A stretch of DNA of 11,251 nucleotides from a virus: the UHGV virus genome UHGV-1558646; one strand, written 5' to 3'. A program made the position numbers and the translations under genes. Positions 2,293 through 11,196 of the stretch are shown in pieces (within the stretch, counting starts at the first letter, position 1; every line of letters starts with the position of its first letter). The notes below the pieces were generated by a model, which saw only the letters and a program-made list of their open reading frames with translations, was not told the DNA's origin and searched no databases.

Positions 2293-2880
2293 TCAGAAAG
2301 AAGGGTAATCGTTCTGGCTGTAACCATAATCATCTGCATGATTCTGGCTTACGTTTTTAGAGCGATTGTCTTTATCTTTGAGATGGGCAACCATGTTGGT
2401 GATAGTTTCTGGTTGCTTGCCTTCTGCCTTTTCTTTAAGGGTTTGACCTGTTTGTGCAATAAACGGGATGCGTATTTCCATCTGATAGCTGTCTGCACCA
2501 GTCCTTTTGTTTGTGGTTAATACTTTCTGGAGCACTAACCCGATTTTCTTTCCATGAAATTCAGGTGCAACAAATTTACTGGCGGAAACCATATGTTGCG
2601 TTAACTGCTTAATCCCAACACACCCCATCATGGCATGAACGACATTTGCACCAAACTTGTTTTCCGTTCCGTCATTTTTCTGAACACAAACGCTAAGATA
2701 CTGGATTTTACGTCCGTCGTCGGATTCGCCAGAAAACTCAATAAATTTGGCTCCTTTTTCTGATTGCTTTAGTTCTGCTTCAGTAATGGTAATGATATGA
2801 GCGCCAGTTTCGTTAATAAAACCACCTTGCCCTGCGGTCAGTGCTGCTTCTTCGTTATAAGTAAAAATCACGTTGCTCAT
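2293..2880 (-). CDS. Sak4 partner protein, putative ssDNA-binding/accessory protein (195 aa) with acidic-aromatic C-terminal tail ...DDYGYSQNDYPSF
   Basis: ATG at 2880 overlaps the TGA of the upstream Sak4-like gene (ATGA). C-terminal tail is reminiscent of the SSB tip (DDDIPF). Assignment is by position and tail, not by recognised OB-fold motifs. Confidence 0.55.
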   Translation of the reverse strand: MSNVIFTYNEEAALTAGQGGFINETGAHIITITEAELKQSEKGAKFIEFSGESDDGRKIQYLSVCVQKNDGTENKFGANVVHAMMGCVGIKQLTQHMVSASKFVAPEFHGKKIGLVLQKVLTTNKRTGADSYQMEIRIPFIAQTGQTLKEKAEGKQPETITNMVAHLKDKDNRSKNVSQNHADDYGYSQNDYPSF

Positions 2881-3557
2881 GCGGCGTTTTCCTTAATTTG
2901 ATGAACATTATTGATGCCGTAGTAATCACAAACAGTGGCATCGACGAAAGAGAGATCGTTATCAATCTCATTGGAATCAAACATTCCCATTGGGGATTTA
3001 ACAGTGTCTGCACCGTTGTTTTTTGTAGTGAAAAAGAACTGGTCATCACGGGTAAGGGTGCGAAGAACTATAGTAAACATGCCTTCGACAGTGATTTTCT
3101 CGTCCAGCATTTTGCCGATAGTTTTCATTTTCACACGCCCCATAGGGGTTTCTTCGGTGTGTGCAAGAAAATAGACTCTCAGGTCATCAGGTGCATCCTG
3201 TGCAGCCTTAATCACCTCCCATGCGTGGCGGCCTATCTCAGTGAATTTATCAAACGATTTTTCTTCTGAGCGGCGCATAAACTCATTGCTCATCACATAC
3301 TGGAAGTCATCAACAATAACGATTCTTTTCCCGTATTCGTGAGCACGCTTAATTACGGCAACTATTACGTCCCATTTGTCAGTGGTAACTACGGTTCCTT
3401 TTTTTGCTCTGGCATCCCATGCCAGCCATTCTTTTGATTTAAATGGTAGCGGCTTGCCTATTGGTTTTATAAGTATTGCTTCCTCTGGATTGATATTTCT
3501 CATGCTGGTTGATTTTCCGGTGCCAGATTCACCGAGTATTAATGTTGCAGTTCCCAT
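2877..3557 (-). CDS. Sak4-like core-only RecA-fold ATPase (AAA_24 family) recombination protein (226 aa)
   Basis: Walker A GESGTGKST at residues 8-16 and Walker B-like RIVIVDDF. Size and N-terminal P-loop are typical of phage Sak4/AAA_24. SD GAGGTGA before the ATG at 3557. Sits where lambda has the Red genes. Confidence 0.7.
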   Translation of the reverse strand: MGTATLILGESGTGKSTSMRNINPEEAILIKPIGKPLPFKSKEWLAWDARAKKGTVVTTDKWDVIVAVIKRAHEYGKRIVIVDDFQYVMSNEFMRRSEEKSFDKFTEIGRHAWEVIKAAQDAPDDLRVYFLAHTEETPMGRVKMKTIGKMLDEKITVEGMFTIVLRTLTRDDQFFFTTKNNGADTVKSPMGMFDSNEIDNDLSFVDATVCDYYGINNVHQIKENAA

Positions 3558-3565
3558 AATTCACC

Positions 3566-3754
3566 TCAGAATGGTAATTCGGATGAGGAGGAAAGAAACT
3601 CGCGCTCATTCATGCGCTCTCTTTGCGCCTGCCATAAGCAAAGTTGTTTCTTTGATTTATCTCCCGCTTTACGCCAGTAACGAGCCTCAGCAATGTGATA
3701 TTCTCTTTTTAATCGACTTAACTCTGGAGTTTTCGCCAGTTCTACCGGAATCAT
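3566..3754 (-). CDS. Small basic hypothetical protein (62 aa)
   Basis: ATG at 3754 overlaps the kil TGA (ATGA), with SD GGAGG 5 nt upstream. Translation: MIPVELAKTPELSRLKREYHIAEARYWRKAGDKSKKQLCLWQAQRERMNEREFLSSSSELPF. The ORF-track start at 3766 is in frame but lacks an SD. Confidence 0.5.
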   Translation of the reverse strand: MIPVELAKTPELSRLKREYHIAEARYWRKAGDKSKKQLCLWQAQRERMNEREFLSSSSELPF

Positions 3755-3864
3755 TTTGACCTCCATTTCCTGTAGGCTTCGACGGCCTCACGAAACATCT
3801 TTTCATCACCAATAAAAGTGGCGATAGTGAATTTAGTCTGGATAGCCATAAGTGTTTTATCCAT
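3751..3864 (-). CDS. kil: Kil-like host cell-division inhibitor peptide (37 aa)
   Basis: Translation MDKTLMAIQTKFTIATFIGDEKMFREAVEAYRKWRSK closely matches the lambda Kil N-terminus as I recall it (MDQTLMAIQTKFTIATFIGDEKMFREAVDAYKKW...). ATG at 3864 with SD AGGAG. Overlaps the end of cIII as in lambda. Confidence 0.6.
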   Translation of the reverse strand: MDKTLMAIQTKFTIATFIGDEKMFREAVEAYRKWRSK

Positions 3865-3997
3865 TTTTGGGAACTCCTGGCTGATTAAGTATGTCGATAA
3901 GGCGTTTCCATCCGTCACGTAATTTACGGGTGATTCGTTCAAGTAAAGATTCGGAAGGGCAGCCAGCAACAGGCCACCCTGCAATGGCATATTGCAT
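3857..3997 (-). CDS. cIII: cIII (46 aa), anti-FtsH regulator of cII stability
   Basis: Read by hand in a frame absent from the ORF track: MQYAIAGWPVAGCPSESLLERITRKLRDGWKRLIDILNQPGVPKNG. This matches lambda CIII (recalled) over its first 46 residues. SD TAAGGAG 6 nt upstream of the ATG at 3997. Confidence 0.65.
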   Translation of the reverse strand: MQYAIAGWPVAGCPSESLLERITRKLRDGWKRLIDILNQPGVPKNG

Positions 3998-4061
3998 GGT
4001 GTGCTCCTTATTTATTTACACATAACGAAAACGCCTCTAGTGAAGCGTTATTGGTATGCAT

Positions 4062-4087
4062 ATAAAAAAGCCCTCACATTGGAGGGC
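4062..4087 (-). terminator. Intrinsic terminator-like hairpin, leftward transcript (tL-like)
   Basis: Minus strand reads GCCCTC-caatgt-GAGGGC followed by TTTTTTATA. Stem at plus 4070..4075 and 4082..4087; T-run is the complement of 4064..4069. Confidence 0.5.
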
Positions 4088-4149
4088 AAAGAAGATTTCC
4101 AATAATCAGAGCAAGTCGGCTCCTGTTTAGTTACGAGCGACATTGCTCC

Positions 4150-4177
4150 GTGTATTCACTCGTTGGAATGAATACAC
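4150..4177. repeat. 9-bp inverted repeat GTGTATTCA-N10-TGAATACAC
   Basis: Perfect 9-bp arms at 4150..4158 and 4169..4177 in the intergenic region between the 207-aa gene and cIII. Possible protein-binding site or RNA hairpin. Confidence 0.4.
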
Positions 4178-4204
4178 AGTGCAGTGTTTATTCTGTTGTT
4201 TATG

Positions 4205-4231
4205 CCAAAAATAAAGGCCGATTATGCGGCC
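4205..4231 (-). terminator. Intrinsic terminator-like hairpin directly after the 207-aa gene
   Basis: Minus strand reads GGCCGCATAATCGGCC followed by TTTATTTTTGG. Stem overlaps the TAA stop at 4222..4224. Confidence 0.5.
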
Positions 4232-4845
4232 TCGGAAGGAAGTCCAATCATCTTATTCAAATCTTCTACCCGTAAAGCAGGAAGTGCTGTACTTGCTTTA
4301 TCTGCTTCTTTTGGTAGCAATTCTTTGCTTTCAGGCCAAACTTCAATAAGTCGCTTAACTGTTGTGACTGATTTCAAAGCAGCCCATACATTTGATTCGA
4401 TATCCTTTTTCTTGGCTTCAAGTTTTTGTTGCAATGCGCAGATTTCATCAAACCTTTTTGTTATTTCGTGTTCTGCGTCAAACATGCATTTATCTTTGAT
4501 CGGAGTAGGGAGCAATATATCTTTGCCGTTGCCGTCTTCCCCATATGAATGCCATCCAACCCTTCTGCCAGATACAGTCAGATAAATTGAAGTAGAACTA
4601 ACATCGTATGAGTAAAATGAACATCCCATCTTTCCAAGTTCTTCACTTATAGCTACCAACTTGGATGATAACTGATCCACTTCCTCAGTTTTCTTTTTAC
4701 CGCCAAACGCAATAACTCTGGCGTCAAGTGCAAGCTGGTTCTTTAACTTTGTTACTTCTTCAAGTTCAGTGAACACCCCGGACTTAATTAAAGCGTTACG
4801 AGCGATTTCCTCTTTCATTCTCGTAGTTAAGCGGATTGATGACAT
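4222..4845 (-). CDS. Hypothetical protein of unknown function (207 aa), AT-rich
   Basis: ATG at 4845 with SD GAGAGGAA 5 nt upstream. The ORF-track start at 4905 is a TTG overlapping the N stop. Translation starts MSSIRLTTRMKEEIARNALIKSG. No recognisable motif. Composition is visibly more AT-rich than the flanking genes. Confidence 0.6.
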   Translation of the reverse strand: MSSIRLTTRMKEEIARNALIKSGVFTELEEVTKLKNQLALDARVIAFGGKKKTEEVDQLSSKLVAISEELGKMGCSFYSYDVSSTSIYLTVSGRRVGWHSYGEDGNGKDILLPTPIKDKCMFDAEHEITKRFDEICALQQKLEAKKKDIESNVWAALKSVTTVKRLIEVWPESKELLPKEADKASTALPALRVEDLNKMIGLPSEAA

Positions 4846-4906
4846 ATTAATTCCTCTCAAATAAGTGGTTTGCTGCCTAATTTCATTTTCTGGCGACCAA
4901 CACAAG

Positions 4907-5290
4907 TCACCTCGCCGTCAGTTGTTTGTATTTCCGGTAGCCTGCCGCGTAAATGGCTACGTTTGGAAGACATACACCAGTTTCTGGTTGCTTATGTCCA
5001 AACTCATTCGCGTACACAATGGCTGCTCGCTCCAGATTGCGTCTGTATTCTTTCTGTTGCCAGATCACGTCCTGTGCCATGAACTTAATTGGCTTAGCGT
5101 CTTCTATGCGCTCAGGCGTTTCGTGAGTACCTTTAGCCTGAATCTGCGCTCTGCTTAGAGTAGGGCGGTGTAATACTTCTGAACTTATTGCTTCTTCGCG
5201 GGCCAGCACGCCGTTAGCTAATGCCTTTGCCTTTAAACGCTCACGACGACGAGAACGTGAATTGCCTTTGAACTGAGTTCTGCGTGTCAT
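4907..5290 (-). CDS. N: N-type transcription antitermination protein, P22 gene 24-like (127 aa)
   Basis: N-terminal arginine-rich motif GNSRSRRRERLKAKALA and C-terminus LPNVAIYAAGYRKYKQLTAR resemble P22 N as I recall it. ATG at 5290 with SD AGGAGG at 6-nt spacing; the ORF-track start at 5356 lacks an SD. nutL boxB lies upstream. Confidence 0.7.
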   Translation of the reverse strand: MTRRTQFKGNSRSRRRERLKAKALANGVLAREEAISSEVLHRPTLSRAQIQAKGTHETPERIEDAKPIKFMAQDVIWQQKEYRRNLERAAIVYANEFGHKQPETGVCLPNVAIYAAGYRKYKQLTAR

Positions 5291-5419
5291 ATGGAACCTC
5301 CTGATGAACTTTGGCGGTGAATACAGCCGGGCGACTAACTCCGGTCGCGTAATCATTGCAAAGCGCCTCCGCCGAGAAGGTTAGCTTCTGCATTCACCCC
5401 AAAGTTCACTTTGGTTATT

Positions 5420-5434
5420 GCGCTTTGTCAGCGC
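5420..5434 (-). promoter_or_regulatory. nutL boxB RNA hairpin (P22-type, GACAA loop)
   Basis: Minus strand reads GCGCTGACAAAGCGC: 5-bp stem, 5-nt GACAA loop. This matches the P22 boxB-left sequence as I recall it. Located about 130 nt upstream of the N start codon. Confidence 0.55.
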
Positions 5435-5460
5435 CGTAGATTCATATTCGAATCGTTGTA

Positions 5461-5481
5461 TATTCACCGCCCTGGTGAGTA
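5461..5481. promoter_or_regulatory. Operator-like 21-bp near-palindrome TATTCACC-GCCCT-GGTGAGTA in the PL region
   Basis: Arms TATTCACC and TACTCACC (7 of 8 match) with a 5-bp centre. The half-site resembles lambda operator half-sites (TATCACCGC). An exact inverted copy of TATTCACCGCC occurs at 5313..5323. Confidence 0.35.
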
Positions 5482-5511
5482 GTGCGTCCTGCTGATGACG
5501 ATAATAATGAA

Positions 5512-5542
5512 CCAATAGTTCGACATTATCAAGAACTATTGG
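5512..5542. promoter_or_regulatory. 31-bp palindrome CCAATAGTTC-N11-GAACTATTGG
   Basis: Perfect 10-bp inverted arms at 5512..5521 and 5533..5542 in the PL control region, between the moron terminator and nutL. Confidence 0.3.
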
Positions 5543-5716
5543 TACGAATTTTGGTGATTTATTAACTCTACGAAGTATGATTCTGATATATAAGGAAATT
5601 TATTTTTGAAAATGTGGCTGATGAAGGTTATGCGGCAGGGATCAGAACTGCATGGTTTAGCGAGTTACATCAATAAATACAATTGGTTATGTGTTTTTAG
5701 GTGGGGGATCGAGAGG

Positions 5717-5743
5717 CAAATAAAACCCGGCTCGGTGGCCGGG
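5717..5743 (-). terminator. Intrinsic terminator closing the repressor/moron transcript
   Basis: GC-rich stem CCCGGC / GCCGGG (5726..5731 and 5738..5743) followed on the minus strand by TTTTATTTG, about 14 nt after the TAA of the 341-aa gene. Also T-rich on the plus side. Confidence 0.55.
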
Positions 5744-5756
5744 GTTAGATTTTCTG

Positions 5757-6782
5757 TTACGGGCGAGTGATGGTTGATGCGTTTCCGTTTTCTATTACAC
5801 CTGCTCGTATCGTGTAGCTTCCCAAGATTTTTACTGTCCTGTTTTCTTTCATTGCATCAAACAGTATGGCGATCTCGTCTTTATCATCTATGAACGACGT
5901 GTCCACCGAAACAGGGAAACTGTCTTCACTAGATGGTTCGCGGCAGCTTAGGGTTATCTTTTCCGCAGTACGCTTGATTCCATCAATGACTAATTCAAGG
6001 TTTCTTTCTTCTTTTTTTGCTTTTTCGATAGGGTTCTTGATTAGTTCGTGGATTTCTTTGTTAGACAGTTCAACTGTGCTTGCGCCTGATATGACAATTT
6101 TGTCAGCATCAGACGCGCCTTTTAATACCCCTGTATACGCTTTTGCAGTATGCTCTTGAATCCCTTCGGCGCGCTCTACTGCATCTATGCCCGCTTTAGC
6201 TCTAATCGCCTCAAGCATTCCGTCCCTTAATATCGTCATGCGCTCGTTTTCTGATTTAATCTTGGCTTCTTCGAGCTTTGTTTCTTCTTGCTTGACTTCT
6301 ACTTCGGCTTTTTTCTCTAAGTATGATGTACCAACCCATGCACCGCCTATAACGGTGACAGCAAACAAGAAGCATAATGTTTTTTGGCTAGGACTCATAC
6401 CGTGTGTTACCTTCTCAAAGGCTTTACCGAATGCTTCAAAAAGCTCTGTTAATGCAGCAAGTATATCAGTACAACCTTCATTAATGGTAAAGATGATCTC
6501 TGCTTCCTCTTTATCTTTACCAGTTAACCTTTGAAGGTTGTCAGTTTTATATTTTATTAGTGTGAAAACTTTATAAATTTCAGTCTGAAATTCGCATAAA
6601 CCCTGAGCTAGAGGAGATGGAAGCGTTCCGTTGTAGCGAGAAGGATCACCATAAATCTTAAAATTCACATTATTGAAGAGGTCTAACTTGATCCTGTCGA
6701 TAGTGATCTCTTCGCCACCATCTAACCTTGCAAACAAAGATTCAATGTCGTCCAGACTTGAAACATTAATAATATCTTTCAT
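5757..6782 (-). CDS. Unknown membrane-anchored coiled-coil protein (341 aa) in the rexAB-equivalent slot; candidate exclusion/abortive-infection gene
   Basis: ORF track 5757..6782. ATG at 6782 with SD GAAGGTG. One predicted TM helix (TLCFLFAVTVIGGAWVGTSYL, about residues 136-156) followed by a K/E-rich coiled-coil. AT-rich relative to the repressor and replication genes. 80 bp downstream of the repressor stop on the same strand. Confidence 0.7.
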   Translation of the reverse strand: MKDIINVSSLDDIESLFARLDGGEEITIDRIKLDLFNNVNFKIYGDPSRYNGTLPSPLAQGLCEFQTEIYKVFTLIKYKTDNLQRLTGKDKEEAEIIFTINEGCTDILAALTELFEAFGKAFEKVTHGMSPSQKTLCFLFAVTVIGGAWVGTSYLEKKAEVEVKQEETKLEEAKIKSENERMTILRDGMLEAIRAKAGIDAVERAEGIQEHTAKAYTGVLKGASDADKIVISGASTVELSNKEIHELIKNPIEKAKKEERNLELVIDGIKRTAEKITLSCREPSSEDSFPVSVDTSFIDDKDEIAILFDAMKENRTVKILGSYTIRAGVIENGNASTITRP

Positions 6783-7883: not shown

Positions 7884-7929
7884 CGCTATTTTCACAATGG
7901 ACATTCGTCCTACGTCGCTGACAAAGCGA
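7884..7929 (+). promoter_or_regulatory. nutR: boxA-like CGCTATTTTCACA plus boxB hairpin TCGCTGACAAAGCGA
   Basis: boxB at 7915..7929 has a 5-bp stem and the same GACAA loop as nutL. boxA-like element at 7884..7896 resembles the lambda boxA consensus CGCTCTTACACA. Lies between cro and cII as in lambda. Confidence 0.5.
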
Positions 7930-8333: not shown

Positions 8334-8477
8334 ATGCGAAAAACGCAGGAAAATAAACGCGTTAATCACCGAAAAGATGTGCTACGTGACCAGTTTTATC
8401 AGGGAGTTAATCCAGCAATAGCTGTGCCACTGAGAGAAATACTTAACAGGTACAAAACTTCGGAGAAGTCAAAATGA
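8334..8477 (+). CDS. Small basic hypothetical protein (47 aa)
   Basis: ATG at 8334 with SD GAGG at 7-nt spacing. TGA overlaps the ATG of the replication initiator (ATGA). The ORF-track version (8169..8477) overlaps cII in another frame, so the internal start is preferred. Confidence 0.4.
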   Translation: MRKTQENKRVNHRKDVLRDQFYQGVNPAIAVPLREILNRYKTSEKSK

Positions 8478-9205
8478 GCATGAATCTTATGGCTAAGGCC
8501 ATGAATATAAAGGTTGGCAACCCACTGAGAAAACTGGTTCTGATTAAACTTGCCGATAACGCCAATGATAATGGCGAATGCTGGCCTTCATATCAACATG
8601 TCGCTGACCAGTGTGAGGTGAGCAGATCGACAGTAAAAAGTCACATTAGGGCACTGGAAGAGATGGGTCTTTTGAAAAGGGAATGCAGAAGAAAAGGAGA
8701 GCTTAACCAGTCAAACGTTTTTTATCTGACGCTGGATAATGCACAACAAATCCCACCAGAATCAGGTGGGGCAGGAGCTGCCCCCAGAACCTATCACTCT
8801 TTTGAACCAGTCAATGAACCTAAAAACATTATGTTCGAACATGTCCGAACGGAGTGGGAAAAAACTCCTGACCGTCACGAAGAAACCGACAAGGCATTCG
8901 AGGAAATATTCTGGTGTGCAGGCATGCGGAAAGCCGGGAAGAAAAACGCAGCTTCAGCATTCAGAACACAGTTCAGGGAATGGCGTAAAACTACCAGGGG
9001 TACGGCAAGCGAGTTTGCCACGATGCTGGCAGAAGACATCGCATGCAGGAATGGTAAGCAGTTCGGATTCGACAGGTTGTTACCATCGAGCTACCTGAAC
9101 GGTCAACGCTGGAACGACGAGAAGCCAGAAACTATTCAACCACAATCCAAACCATCATCCGCAATCACCGTATCGAAAACTGGCTACGTGTTTTTCGACA
9201 GGTGA
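8474..9205 (+). CDS. Replication initiator / replisome organiser, O-like, with N-terminal HTH (243 aa)
   Basis: N-terminal LVLIKLADNANDNGECWPSYQHVADQCEVSRSTVKSHIRALEEMGLL resembles the HTH domain of phage replication initiators. Low-complexity linker PPESGGAGAAP. Located in the lambda O position. Confidence 0.7.
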   Translation: MSMNLMAKAMNIKVGNPLRKLVLIKLADNANDNGECWPSYQHVADQCEVSRSTVKSHIRALEEMGLLKRECRRKGELNQSNVFYLTLDNAQQIPPESGGAGAAPRTYHSFEPVNEPKNIMFEHVRTEWEKTPDRHEETDKAFEEIFWCAGMRKAGKKNAASAFRTQFREWRKTTRGTASEFATMLAEDIACRNGKQFGFDRLLPSSYLNGQRWNDEKPETIQPQSKPSSAITVSKTGYVFFDR

Positions 9206-9208
9206 ACC

Positions 9209-9316
9209 ATGAAATCCAGAATCAAATCGTTACTTATCGCTGGCTATAACCATGGCTGGCTTAGTTCTGCATTCGTTGAGTTCTGGTTTAACCGTCTCGA
9301 TCTGAGGTCAGCGTAA
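9209..9316 (+). CDS. Possible small ORF (35 aa) between the initiator and the primase
   Basis: ATG at 9209 follows AGGTGA. Translation MKSRIKSLLIAGYNHGWLSSAFVEFWFNRLDLRSA. Its TAA overlaps the primase ATG (TAATG). Below the ORF-track size cutoff. Confidence 0.3.
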   Translation: MKSRIKSLLIAGYNHGWLSSAFVEFWFNRLDLRSA

Positions 9317-11196
9317 TGACTCCAAGTGAACTGAGCGACCTGCTTTGGGCGCAGGTTGACAGGGTGGCTCCGCACCTGTTGCCAAACGGCAAGAAAGAGG
9401 GGCATGAGTGGGTTGCCGGTAACGTTAACGGTGACAAGGGAAACAGCCTTAAGGTCAACCTTAGCGGCAAGAAAAAATGGGCTGATTTCGCTGAGGGAGA
9501 CGGCGGTGACATGCTTGATTTGTGGATGGCATGTCGTGGAATTAACCTGCATCAGGCTATGCAGGAAGCGAAAGCATTTCTCGGTATCAAGGATGACGAT
9601 CACCATTTCGATGCCAGACGTGAGAAGAAATTCTCCAGACCTGATCGCAAGAAAATCGCCAGTTACGTTACCAGAACAGAATCCCATCTTGAGTACCTGC
9701 AATCGCGTGGCATATCGCCAGAAGTCGTAAAGCGCTACGAGGTTGTCAGCGGCAAGGTGTGGAATGGAGAGCGGGAACTGGATGCTCTGGTGCTTCCGTA
9801 CAAACGCGATGGTGAGTTGTTGCAGGTCAAGCGAATCAGCACTGAGCGCCCGGACGGGAAGAAAGTCATTATGGCAGAAGGTGATTGCGAACCTTGTCTG
9901 TTCGGATGGCAGGCTCTGGACGCTGGCGTGAGGGCGGTTGTACTTTGCGAAGGCGAAATTGATTGTATGAGCTATGCGCAATACGGCATCTCGGCGTTAT
10001 CCGTGCCGTTTGGTGGCGGGAAAGGCGCTAAGCAGCAGTGGATTGAGTTTGAGTATCACAACCTCGACAGGTTTGAGGAAATATTCATCTCGATGGATGT
10101 TGATGATGTTGGTCGTGAAGCCGCAAGGGAAATCGCAAGCCGACTCGGTGAACATCGTTGCCGTCTTGTTACTCTGCCGTACAAAGACATCAACGAATGC
10201 CTGATGAACGGTGTTACCGAGGATGAAATCTGGCAGTACATCGGCACGGCATCCTACTTCGATCCTGAAGAACTCTACAGCGCGCGAGAGTTTTACCAGG
10301 ACACTATCAACGCTTTCTACGGCAAGCAGCAGTATCTGTTTAATCCACCGTGGGAATCTCTGGCAGATAAATTCCAGTTCCGTGAGGCCGAGTTGACGCT
10401 GGTCAATGGTGTGAACGGTCACGGAAAAACGGAGGTTGTCGGGCATATGGCACTTGAGGCAATGCGTCAGGGTGTGAAGACGTGCATCGCGTCACTTGAG
10501 CTGAAGCCTGGTATTCTCCTTAAGCGCCTTACCCGTCAGGCGACGTGCTGCAAGATGCCGCCAGTGCTGGAAATTGACTCTGCATTTAAATTTTATGACG
10601 AAAGACTTTGGGTGTTTGGCCTGACCGGAACGGCGAAAGCCGACAGGCTGATCGAAATATTCGACTACGCTCGCCGCCGATACGGTATCCAGTTATTCAT
10701 CATCGACAGCCTGATGAAATGTGGCATAGGCGACGATGACTATAACGGGCAGAAGGCGTTTGTTGACTCGATTTGCGACTTCAAAAACAAAACAAACTCC
10801 CACGTCATTCTCGTTACTCACTCGCGAAAAGGAGACAGCGAAGAAAAACCAACCGGGAAAATGGACGTAAAAGGCTCTGGAGCGATAACAGACCTGACAG
10901 ACAACCTTTTTATCATCTGGCGTAACAAGGCTCGCGAGAGAGCGTTACAGAGAGTTCAAAGCGGTGAACAGATGTCAGAGAAGGACGAACAGCTACTGGT
11001 GTCTCCGGCATCTGTTTTGTTGCTTGAAAAACAACGTAACGGTGAAGGTTGGGAAGGTGGTATCCCGTTGTTCCTTGACGAGCAATCGCACCAGTTCCTG
11101 CAACTTGAATCAGGATCTCCATATAGCTACATCGCCAATATGCCGAAATCGGAATATGACGAGGCGTGGAGACAGGAAAACGTGACGGAGTATTAA
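9316..11196 (+). CDS. Bifunctional DNA primase (TOPRIM) / RecA-fold DnaB-like replicative helicase (626 aa)
   Basis: TOPRIM motifs VVLCEGEIDCMSYAQ (catalytic Glu) and ISMDVDDVGREA (DxD). Helicase Walker A NGVNGHGKTEV and Walker B LFIIDSLMK. SD GAGGT before the ATG at 9316. Confidence 0.85.
   Translation: MTPSELSDLLWAQVDRVAPHLLPNGKKEGHEWVAGNVNGDKGNSLKVNLSGKKKWADFAEGDGGDMLDLWMACRGINLHQAMQEAKAFLGIKDDDHHFDARREKKFSRPDRKKIASYVTRTESHLEYLQSRGISPEVVKRYEVVSGKVWNGERELDALVLPYKRDGELLQVKRISTERPDGKKVIMAEGDCEPCLFGWQALDAGVRAVVLCEGEIDCMSYAQYGISALSVPFGGGKGAKQQWIEFEYHNLDRFEEIFISMDVDDVGREAAREIASRLGEHRCRLVTLPYKDINECLMNGVTEDEIWQYIGTASYFDPEELYSAREFYQDTINAFYGKQQYLFNPPWESLADKFQFREAELTLVNGVNGHGKTEVVGHMALEAMRQGVKTCIASLELKPGILLKRLTRQATCCKMPPVLEIDSAFKFYDERLWVFGLTGTAKADRLIEIFDYARRRYGIQLFIIDSLMKCGIGDDDYNGQKAFVDSICDFKNKTNSHVILVTHSRKGDSEEKPTGKMDVKGSGAITDLTDNLFIIWRNKARERALQRVQSGEQMSEKDEQLLVSPASVLLLEKQRNGEGWEGGIPLFLDEQSHQFLQLESGSPYSYIANMPKSEYDEAWRQENVTEY

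Follow-up and report, generated by a model that had tools for sequence, protein, structure and literature searches.

The gene at positions 4222..4845 on the minus strand of the 11,251-nucleotide stretch of virus genome UHGV-1558646 analysed here (the window) is an already catalogued member of the Nmad5 family and an ordinary accessory gene. Judged from homology with related phages, it is a mobile cassette occupying the slot immediately after N in a lambdoid PL operon, and from the order of promoter-like and terminator-like sites it is probably transcribed together with N, ahead of antitermination. Since the family already has a name and two of the supposedly private terminators belong to the lambdoid backbone, we consider the gene real but ordinary.

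The gene downstream of N and its family

The gene and its surroundings comprise the following features.

3857..4010, minus strand: cIII coding sequence (3857-3997; Pfam Lambda_CIII, E 9e-31) with its leader/thermoregulator RNA (3952-4010; Rfam RF01804, 88.5 bits); the next gene downstream
4222..4845, minus strand: Nmad5-family coding sequence, 207 aa, 23 kDa, pI 6.8 (ATG 4845-4843, TAA 4224-4222)
4852..4858, minus strand: Shine-Dalgarno sequence GAGAGGA, read from the sequence, 6 nt 5' of the ATG
4907..5290, minus strand: coding sequence of the N antiterminator, 127 aa (Pfam N_peptide, E 1.3e-14), directly upstream of the Nmad5 gene

A preliminary description of this DNA had reported a 207-aa reading frame with a good ribosome-binding site between N and cIII, and its coordinates, the GAGAGGA sequence and both flanking genes were all as claimed. 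The same methionine starts the protein in 23 of 23 aligned homologues, so that a 227-aa version beginning at TTG is wrong. The gene had also been called AT-rich; its GC content is indeed below that of the window, but only modestly (40.1%, with 34% at GC3, versus 44.9% for the window; 49.1% for N). The dN/dS ratio across 72 close alleles is ~0.35-0.46.

The same description saw no recognisable motif in the protein. We found instead that it matches Pfam PF18757 (Nmad5) over its full length (E 7.5e-71; 238.9 bits against a gathering threshold of 27; residues 4-203 on positions 1-206 of the 206-position model) as well as phrog_1965 (E 1.3e-82), and that near-identical genes carry the RefSeq label "Nmad5 family putative nucleotide modification protein". 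Genes 96-99.8% identical to it are already held in public records, near-identical ones occurring in phages HK542 (HK542_033) and mEp235 and in Stx1a phages, and of 5426 complete E. coli genomes 211 (~4%) carry a near-identical gene that RefSeq names in this way. The family comprises at least 2258 clusters or representatives at 50% identity and extends over lambdoid, N4-like, Dhillonvirus, Yuavirus, vibriophage and cyanophage genomes. The protein has the same ~200-aa standalone architecture, C-terminal signature and predicted fold as the PF18757/phrog_1965 family, with no difference at the sequence level. A literature search returned no paper on PhiR12 coliphages or on the Nmad5 gene in mEp235.

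The remote-homology and structure check that had been suggested for the 207 residues thus gave a named family but no relative of solved structure. A stalk made of three helices, a small beta sheet and a conserved module at the C-terminus, S159-VTTVKRLIEVWPESKELLP ... LPALRVEDLNKMIGLP-203, make up the predicted fold, a helical bundle with no recognisable active site that matches no solved structure, including no solved enzyme relative. A sequence search of the PDB with the protein gave no match, and a structure search of BFVD returned as top matches Nmad5 or uncharacterised phage proteins of ~200 aa (E to 5e-13, TM to 0.75) and nothing else. The family signature at residues 159-203, SVTTVKxLLExWPEAxELLP ... 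LPAxxVxxLNxxIGLP, is present here. P178 and N197 are the sole invariant residues among 146 diverse members, T162, L166, W170, P171, E172, L176, P189, L196 and G201 are conserved in at least 90%, and the near-invariant residues lie mostly in this C-terminal motif; no catalytic-looking residue cluster is found across these members.

No known DNA-binding domain was detected with Pfam, in which the C-terminal 50 aa match Nmad5 only. The stretch LPALxVxDLNxxIGLP resembles a SAP, HeH or Rho_N-like DNA-binding motif, a reading that we rejected when a Pfam search with eight C-terminal fragments gave no match other than Nmad5 (E <= 10). An acidic DNA mimic is ruled out by the pI of 6.8 (family median 7.65). 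The protein has no match to anti-restriction proteins of the Ral, Ocr or ArdA type in Pfam, PHROG or NCBIfam, no defence or anti-defence match in NCBIfam, and no match to any defence family of PADLOC-DB 2.0 at E <= 1.

A mosaic slot with variable neighbours

The proposal that N is directly followed by a variable accessory slot on the PL strand was borne out by 114 related loci, in which homology blocks end near the gene borders. Upstream, the block ends fall mostly between the N stop and the start of the reading frame (4860-4915), and on the other side at ~4170-4215, ~4060 or 3970-4050; the genes on either side of the cassette differ among these loci. In relatives the slot holds ral, nun (HK75) or ea10, and in lambda sieB. 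These genes (nun in HK022 and HK75) share the position, the strand and the backbone block that follows, and all are accessory and mosaic, although they have no sequence similarity to Nmad5. Nmad5 is found together with ral at 10 of 71 loci and with ea10 at 13 of 71, implying that it is not simply their replacement. In a Stx2a phage that we examined, an IS3-family element breaks the gene after about codon 37, and a match truncated in the same way (aa 34-207) is seen for the other Stx2a-phage entries among the matches listed.

In the 19 non-redundant loci sampled, Nmad5 usually lies near a repressor, N, and genes for replication or recombination; the tally is led by the S24 repressor (6) and N (3), and also includes PDDEXK (3), AAA_24 (2), Enc34 SSB (2) and DNA_pol_A (2). 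One relative, 46% identical, comes first after the repressor on the PL side. Non-lambdoid phages carry the gene within modules for replication, recombination or nucleotide metabolism. These replication-type neighbours speak for a reading in which Nmad5 is a structural adaptor on replicating or recombining phage DNA that, for example, loads or organises SSB, annealase, exonuclease or polymerase and has no role in defence. The N4-like phage SP-058 has, in order, DNA polymerase, a small reading frame, ThyX, Nmad5, PD-(D/E)XK exonuclease, primase, Sak4 and SSB; a further locus, L160, has DUF2800 PD-(D/E)XK, Enc34 ssDNA-binding protein, Nmad5 and DNA Pol A. A few genes separate Nmad5 from a DNA polymerase in Yuavirus LKO4 and cyanophage Pam3, in SPN3UB it follows the O/DnaC replication genes at a distance of a few genes, in the region before ninG and Q, and in the window it lies upstream of a Sak4-like/SSB/Abc2 module.

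We nevertheless consider an adaptor of this kind unlikely. The 71 close lambdoid loci carry Erf with Abc2 (22), Abc2 only (21), Bet with Gam (8), Sak4 with Abc2 (6) or no detected recombinase (14); every recombinase type co-occurs with Nmad5, which leaves it without a fixed partner. Lambdoid phages lack a polymerase of their own, the Dhillonvirus gene is antisense among head genes, and the Stx2a disruption and the absence of any detected DNA-binding domain of a known kind also count against this reading. A linkage to one recombinase type, Sak4, had been suggested by the N4-like context and was dropped, the recombinase of close lambdoid loci being Erf, Bet, Sak4 or another.

The family name implies a role in nucleotide modification, for which Iyer et al. 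2013 is reportedly the cited source. If taken literally, Nmad5 would be a true nucleotide or DNA modification enzyme, or an obligatory cofactor, acting on phage bases. The association behind the Pfam and RefSeq name is seen in LKO4 and Pam3, where the gene lies in thymidine-hypermodification clusters between aGPT-Pplase1 and a dUMP hydroxymethylase-like thymidylate synthase, by the phage DNA polymerase; the genome announcement of SN1 likewise places Nmad5 in a hypermodification cassette (PMC9476957). The proteins of M6/SN1/LKO4 (gp18) and Pam3 (gp51) belong to the same Pfam family (E 2e-33 and 1e-30), and share ~32-38% identity with the protein here over the C-terminal 85 residues.

The gene in the window, in contrast, stands alone in the PL operon. 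No 5-hmdU kinase, aGPT-Pplase, hydroxymethylase or rSAM/PLP enzyme was found in the 11-kb window, nor any other kinase, glycosyltransferase or methylase near the gene, and base-modification enzymes were also lacking among the three neighbours on either side at the 19 non-redundant loci. The modification role is therefore unsupported at this locus. An aGPT-Pplase neighbour occurs at 0 of the 19 other non-redundant loci, and a hypermodification context in only 2 of 22 locus clusters, LKO4 and Pam3, both of which had been added deliberately rather than by sampling. The in vitro study of thymidine hypermodification in phage M6 was confined to lysates of gp51-gp55, and the legible Pfam assignments of that report do not list Nmad5 (PMC8989533). 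Together with the predicted helical bundle, in which neither an active site nor a solved enzyme relative is recognisable, these observations make a modification enzyme or cofactor highly improbable. The name Nmad5 says more than is established, and the modification context is a minority one.

Hairpins between the gene and cIII

Two terminator-like hairpins (4205..4231 and 4062..4087) and a perfect 9-bp inverted repeat (4150..4177) had been reported downstream of the gene, and all are present. A scan of positions 3600-5800 gave 6 terminator-like sites, compared with 2.1 +/- 1.4 in shuffled sequences. The elements of the interval are as follows.

4205..4233, minus strand: T1, an intrinsic-terminator-like hairpin GAGGCCG/CGGCCTT followed by TTTATTTTT (stem 4233..4214, T-run to ~4205; scan and folding)
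4140..4187, no strand assigned: long imperfect palindrome or RNA hairpin with no U-tract on the minus strand; shared lambdoid backbone
4062..4087, minus strand: T2, hairpin GCCCTC/GAGGGC followed by TTTTTT (stem 4087..4070; z -3.4); backbone terminator
4022..4049, minus strand: T3, hairpin AACGCTTC/GAGGCGTT with a T-rich tail (stem 4049..4030; z -2.8), just 5' of the cIII leader; backbone

T1, T2 and T3 each have the GC-rich stem-loop, the U-tract and the conserved position of intrinsic (Rho-independent) terminators. T1 holds the stop codon of the Nmad5 gene in its loop, and the final codons GAG GCC GCA form its 5' arm. Its folding energy is unexceptional (dG -11, z -1.4; 17 of 200 shuffles as good). 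A hairpin overlapping the stop and followed by a T-run is kept in three other Nmad5 subgroups of ~55-60% protein identity with changed stems (GGCCGC/GCGGCC, GGCTGC/GCAGCC and CCGCC/GGCGG); these compensatory changes were read from the raw sequences and are not a formal covariation count, because loop lengths differ and the MAFFT alignment lost the register of the 3' arm.

The 9-bp repeat (4150-4158/4169-4177) is the core of the much longer hairpin at 4140-4187, which has 14 contiguous pairs and ~20 in total (dG -24.9 kcal/mol, z = -6.4; 0 of 200 shuffles as good). This hairpin is identical in HK542 and lies between ral and ea10 in lambda, where the ral-ea10 intergenic block is 96% identical to 4059-4215, a segment that includes T2. 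The lambda counterpart of T2 is upstream of ea10, and T3, a hairpin absent from the earlier list, matches lambda just upstream of cIII. In HK75 the backbone block follows nun, and the record annotates T2 and T3 as terminators. Lambda tL1 and tL2, like T1-T3, have GC-rich stems followed by T-runs and lie on the PL strand of the N-cIII interval; T2 and T3, which presumably correspond to tL2, are nearly identical to lambda sequence. A literature search on lambda tL2 terminators gave unrelated papers only.

By these comparisons only T1 travels with the Nmad5 cassette, and the long hairpin, T2 and T3 are lambdoid backbone. The notion of an insulated module therefore survives in part: the gene has its own terminator at its end, whereas the other three elements are shared with lambda (after ral) and HK75 (after nun). 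The only known RNA family that Rfam detected in the intergenic region is the cIII thermoregulator; RF02733 ToxT_thermometer (29.8 bits, gathering threshold 81) and RF02172 (15, threshold 40) were sub-threshold and look like chance matches. A 31-codon reading frame at 4048-4143 is seemingly "fused" to bigger proteins in relatives, a longest-ORF artefact across the shared backbone block; this prefix is all that the two larger proteins have in common.

Expected transcription with N

Two further sites lie upstream of N.

5504..5532, minus strand: PL-like sigma-70 promoter TTGATA-17-CATTAT, the only promoter-like site in 3600-5800 (scan)
5420..5434, minus strand: nutL boxB-like hairpin GCGCTGACAAAGCGC, an exact match (0.03 expected by chance)

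We take GCGCTGACAAAGCGC to be a P22-type boxB. A second copy with 2 mismatches, at 7915-7929 on the plus strand downstream of cro, is probably nutR.

The preliminary description had the gene expressed under N antitermination, which is probably backwards. The scan showed no terminator-like site in the 61-nt gap between N and the Nmad5 gene, and the sole call between PL/nutL and the end of the gene was a weak 5-bp stem in N (4988..4976), which we discounted. The gene is on the strand of PL, nutL and N, with no credible intrinsic terminator before it and T1 directly after it, as in a lambdoid PL immediate-early unit. Lying upstream of the first credible terminator, it should be made with N and without needing N. 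In lambda the first terminator directly follows N, whereas here it follows the Nmad5 gene, so that the immediate-early unit would hold two genes. The predicted order is PL, nutL, N, Nmad5 and T1, with Nmad5 as an immediate-early product independent of antitermination and T1 in the role of lambda tL1. Transcription of cIII, kil and the Sak4/SSB/Abc2 recombination genes would then require N-modified polymerase to read through T2 and T3. The unremarkable energy of T1 counts against such a unit, and a Rho-dependent stop may lie between N and the Nmad5 gene, which counts against N-independent expression.

The promoter scan also bears on whether Nmad5 is a moron or exclusion gene expressed from its own promoter in the lysogen, which it would protect as sieB, rex and nun do. 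The slot holds nun in HK75 and sieB in lambda, the gene is somewhat AT-rich and its terminator is its own, traits typical of morons, and a 2026 machine-learning survey, whose predicted defence domains are unvalidated, includes one "nucleotide modification associated domain" that is not further specified (PMC13092281). However, the terminator is the only half of the moron definition seen here: no sigma-70-like site was found at 4846-5500, which includes the N-Nmad5 gap and the 3' end of N. Nmad5 genes are also found in strictly lytic N4-like, Dhillonvirus and Yuavirus phages, and the protein has no PADLOC match. We regard a moron as slightly more improbable still than a modification enzyme.

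A possible binding role

On balance we favour, by a little, the explanation that the gene is a standalone Nmad5 cassette, immediate-early with N, whose product is a non-catalytic binder. The data point weakly to a binding protein that would act at the interface between phage DNA and host defence. In favour of this explanation we count the full-length family matches, the lack of enzyme-like features, the recurrent position in early operons near the S24 repressor or N, the retention of T1 with changed stems, the occupation of the slot by ral, nun or ea10 in relatives, and the Dhillonvirus results below. Since the module at 159-203 is the only part conserved across the family, we propose it as the contact surface, which might meet a partner common to many hosts, or phage DNA. 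The gene would be dispensable for basic growth, as suggested by the IS3-family disruption in the Stx2a phage and the truncated match in the other Stx2a entries listed. A protective or host-directed role, in which Nmad5 blocks or evades a host defence of the nuclease or NTPase type during early DNA metabolism, is a tentative proposal that we place somewhat below even. Against a binder at this interface we count the PADLOC result and a pI unlike that of an acidic DNA mimic; the setting outside lambdoid phages fits an accessory of DNA metabolism equally well.

Previous work on Dhillonvirus provides a lead. The Nmad5 protein of these phages (PhiSMA8/PhiSMS22/SECphi18 gp24) belongs to the same Pfam family (E 1.3e-57), but it is at least 254 aa long, compared with 207 aa here, with a divergent N-terminal half, and its gene runs antisense to the head genes on either side of it in a lytic phage; the results on Tmn defence are those of Dhillonvirus and not of a lambdoid phage. 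A single K-to-E change in Nmad5 allows escape from Tmn, and the wild-type gene could not be cloned owing to toxicity, while its deletion is viable and leaves Tmn sensitivity unchanged (PMC11846954). The unchanged sensitivity implies that wild-type Nmad5 does not simply inhibit Tmn and is not its only trigger. K216 of phage SM_A8 aligns with R165 here, inside the motif T-x-K-[KR]-L-I-E-x-W-P-E, so the Tmn escape site, the one residue of the family known to be sensitive in experiments, falls in the signature.

A broader and rather doubtful possibility is that Nmad5 proteins are misnamed and are widespread non-enzymatic immediate-early effectors of orphan fold, whose C-terminal module contacts a component of the host or a sensor of its defences. 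If so, the Tmn KAP-NTPase would be the sole lead for a target, and lambdoid Nmad5 would be made with N before other delayed-early functions. For the window itself the consequences are small, as the gene is catalogued and most of the terminators belong to the usual lambdoid backbone; the corrective value lies in the overstated family name, in placing the gene probably inside the immediate-early unit of N and not behind its first terminator, and in mapping the Tmn escape site to R165. A lambdoid copy such as that of HK542 or mEp235 would offer a genetically tractable entry to the large and structurally orphan Nmad5 family.

Identification of an Nmad5 family gene in the early region

The 207-aa protein, in which the preliminary description saw no recognisable motif, belongs, over its full length, to Pfam PF18757 (Nmad5; E 7.5e-71). 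It is also assigned to phrog_1965, of unknown function, and nothing matched it in PADLOC or NCBIfam. The ORF starts at the ATG at 4845, with GAGAGGA 6 nt upstream, and all Nmad5 homologues aligned share this start Met; the ORF, its RBS and a terminator scan confirmed the earlier observation of an ORF followed by hairpins. Its GC content is 40.1%, versus 44.9% for the window. From a dN/dS of ~0.35-0.46 among 72 distinct close alleles, it is a coding gene, and the purifying selection on it is not particularly strong.

RefSeq gives near-identical genes the name "Nmad5 family putative nucleotide modification protein", and 211 of 5426 complete E. coli genomes carry such a gene. Further copies, labelled "hypothetical" in their records, are found in HK542 (HK542_033), mEp235, PhiR12, Kapi1 and Stx1a phages. 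When 1.84 billion representatives were searched with a profile, 2258 Nmad5 clusters were found at E <= 1e-3, the best 150 of which are mostly standalone proteins of ~190-230 aa.

The genome is lambdoid (Stx-phage-like), and the window comprises its immunity and early region. Overall, the window is matched best by Stx2a phages (53-62% coverage, 97-98% identity).

Features of the window (coordinates, strand, feature)
1973-2269, minus: Abc2, following the Sak4-like ATPase/SSB pair
2293-3766, minus: recombination module, Sak4-like ATPase (226 aa, phrog_2872) and SSB (195 aa, phrog_743), with a 66-aa phrog_1723 protein ahead of them
3751-3864, minus: kil, after cIII; then Sak4-like ATPase, SSB, Abc2 and an Ea22-like protein
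3857-3997, minus: cIII, the next gene downstream of the Nmad5 ORF
3952-4010, minus: cIII thermoregulator RNA (Rfam)
4049..4030, minus: hairpin T3 (terminator scan)
4087..4070, minus: hairpin T2 (terminator scan)
4233..4214, minus: hairpin T1 (terminator scan)
4222-4845, minus: Nmad5 ORF, 207 aa
4907-5290, minus: N (Pfam N_peptide)
5420-5434, minus: boxB-type hairpin GCGCTGACAAAGCGC (sequence match)
5504-5532, minus: PL-like promoter (promoter scan)
5726-5743, both strands: bidirectional terminator-like hairpin beside a 341-aa ORF
7915-7929, plus: second boxB copy TCGCTGACAAAGCGA, after cro (sequence match)
8474-9205, plus: HTH_36 initiator-like protein
9316-11196, plus: Toprim and DnaB-like primase-helicase fusion, 626 aa

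The two boxB-like hairpins, which we take to be of the P22 type, lie where nutL and nutR would be expected; no clear boxA was seen on the upstream side of nutL. The replication genes at 8474-9205 and 9316-11196 differ from the lambda O/P type. Between PL and cI, a slot that holds rexAB in lambda, lies the 341-aa ORF (5757-6782, minus strand, GC 40.5%), probably the "first AT-rich cargo gene" of the preliminary description. This ORF falls in phrog_6191 (unknown function, E 1e-98), has no match in Pfam or PADLOC, and is a candidate for expression in the lysogen.

Transcription and downstream hairpins

The scans would reverse the proposal that the Nmad5 gene is expressed under N antitermination. 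No terminator-like site was found in the 61-nt gap between N and Nmad5, and the sole further call between PL and T1 was a weak 5-bp stem within N. A promoter scan of 3600-5800 returned no promoter-like site apart from PL. In the simplest reading of the sequence, N and the Nmad5 gene would form one immediate-early transcript with its 3' end at T1, and N would then be required to read past T1, T2 and T3 to cIII and beyond.

Between the Nmad5 stop codon and cIII, the minus-strand scan returned three hairpins, T1 to T3. The 9-bp inverted repeat reported previously is real, and a 48-nt hairpin is built around it (4140-4187; dG -24.9 kcal/mol, z -6.4 for folding against shuffles). The ~20-bp stem of this hairpin has no U-tract on the minus strand and is followed by a T-rich run on the plus strand; within the PL transcript, it may serve for processing by RNase III. 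This long hairpin is almost exactly conserved in lambda (ral-ea10), HK542 and HK75. The segment 4059-4215, which contains it and T2, is ~96% identical to lambda ral-ea10 intergenic DNA, and T3 with the cIII leader corresponds to what lies immediately 5' of cIII in lambda. In HK75, nun precedes the same block, and T2 and T3 carry terminator annotations in that phage's record. Since these three elements are shared with lambda and HK75, they are lambdoid backbone and not the insulation of the Nmad5 gene that had been envisaged. Presumably they lie within the lambda tL2 cluster.

T1 is built differently: its 5' arm is the final three Nmad5 codons (GAG GCC GCA), its loop holds the stop codon, and its 3' arm and T-run are the start of the shared backbone block. 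Other enterobacterial Nmad5 subgroups (~55-60% protein identity, different downstream DNA) retain a stop-overlapping hairpin and T-run with changed stems (GGCCGC/GCGGCC, GGCTGC/GCAGCC, CCGCC/GGCGG), which argues for T1 being a selected terminator despite its ordinary energy (z -1.4). Among 114 related loci, the edges of homology blocks fall chiefly at 4860-4915 towards N and at ~4170-4215, ~4060 or 3970-4050 on the opposite side, which fits a cassette of the ORF plus T1. Taken together, the gene keeps its description as an early, mosaic accessory gene of undemonstrated function, while its family identity, the ownership of the terminators and its dependence on N are revised.

Predicted structure and genomic context

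The large Nmad5 family is a structural orphan. The AlphaFold2 model (146-sequence input) has a pLDDT of 91.9 and a pTM of 0.82.

Elements of the Nmad5 model (residues)
8-22/24-47, 50-72 and 127-158: three long helices
about 83-122: small beta sheet
163-176: short helices
185-189: flexible linker
193-200: terminal helix

The C-terminal module is the conserved part across diverse members, in which P178 and N197 are invariant and T162, L166, W170-P171-E172, L176, P189, L196 and G201 each reach at least 90% conservation. Inspection of conservation revealed no cluster of catalytic-looking residues, a domain search no recognisable DNA-binding domain, and the protein has no acidic-mimic character.

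A modification context is genuine, yet in the minority. Yuavirus LKO4 and cyanophage Pam3 carry the order aGPT-Pplase1, Nmad5, hydroxymethylase (PMC9476957), and no aGPT-Pplase was found within three genes on either side of Nmad5 in 19 non-redundant loci. In the study of M6 hypermodification, in-vitro work used gp51-gp55 lysates, gp55 (aGPT-Pplase1) was unnecessary for the first glycinylated intermediate, and Nmad5 is absent from the accessible Pfam assignments (PMC8989533). The aGPT-Pplase1 and Nmad5 pair may act jointly outside the characterised steps, and we consider a true modification role improbable. Nmad5 lies directly 3' of aGPT-Pplase1 in these two very distant phages (LKO4, L088, 3683-5270; Pam3, L089, 2620-4285).

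An adaptor role in replication or recombination is the main rival, although an unlikely one. In N4-like SP-058, Nmad5 lies among DNA polymerase, ThyX, PD-(D/E)XK exonuclease, primase, Sak4 and SSB; in a further phage locus (L160) it is flanked by an Enc34-type SSB and DNA Pol A; and in SPN3UB it follows the O/DnaC replication genes at a distance of a few genes. Among the head genes of Dhillonvirus it lies in antisense orientation, and every recombinase type co-occurs with it among 71 close lambdoid loci, where ral is found in 10 and ea10 in 13. A Sak4 and SSB pair, as in the window, occurs three genes after Nmad5 in N4-like phages. Pfam neighbours within three genes at the 19 loci were S24 repressor (6), N (3), PDDEXK (3), AAA_24 (2), Enc34 SSB (2) and DNA_pol_A (2). 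Temperate phages carry Nmad5 one to four genes past the repressor. Lysogen exclusion seems a shade less probable even than modification.

Nmad5 and host defence

Dhillonvirus escapes the host anti-phage defence Tmn (a KAP-NTPase) through a single K-to-E change in Nmad5; reversion restores sensitivity, deletion gives no escape, and wild-type Nmad5 was uncloneable, apparently through toxicity (PMC11846954). The escape residue, K216 in phage SM_A8, aligns to R165 of the window protein, in the conserved C-terminal signature motif and adjoining the near-invariant L166. In Stx2a phage Stx2_716 (L171, 1238-2451), an IS3-family element (OrfA 108 aa, OrfB 296 aa) has inserted into the gene after about codon 37, equivalent to ~4735 in the window, and the same partial match (aa 34-207) recurs in the other Stx2a phages among the matches listed (48 Stx2a records matched in all). 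The gene thus looks inactivated in the Stx2a lineage, which suggests that it is dispensable for those phages.

We propose that Nmad5 would be a non-catalytic binding protein that works via its C-terminal module and acts where phage DNA meets host defence. A protective or host-directed version of this role is our leading, still tentative, reading.
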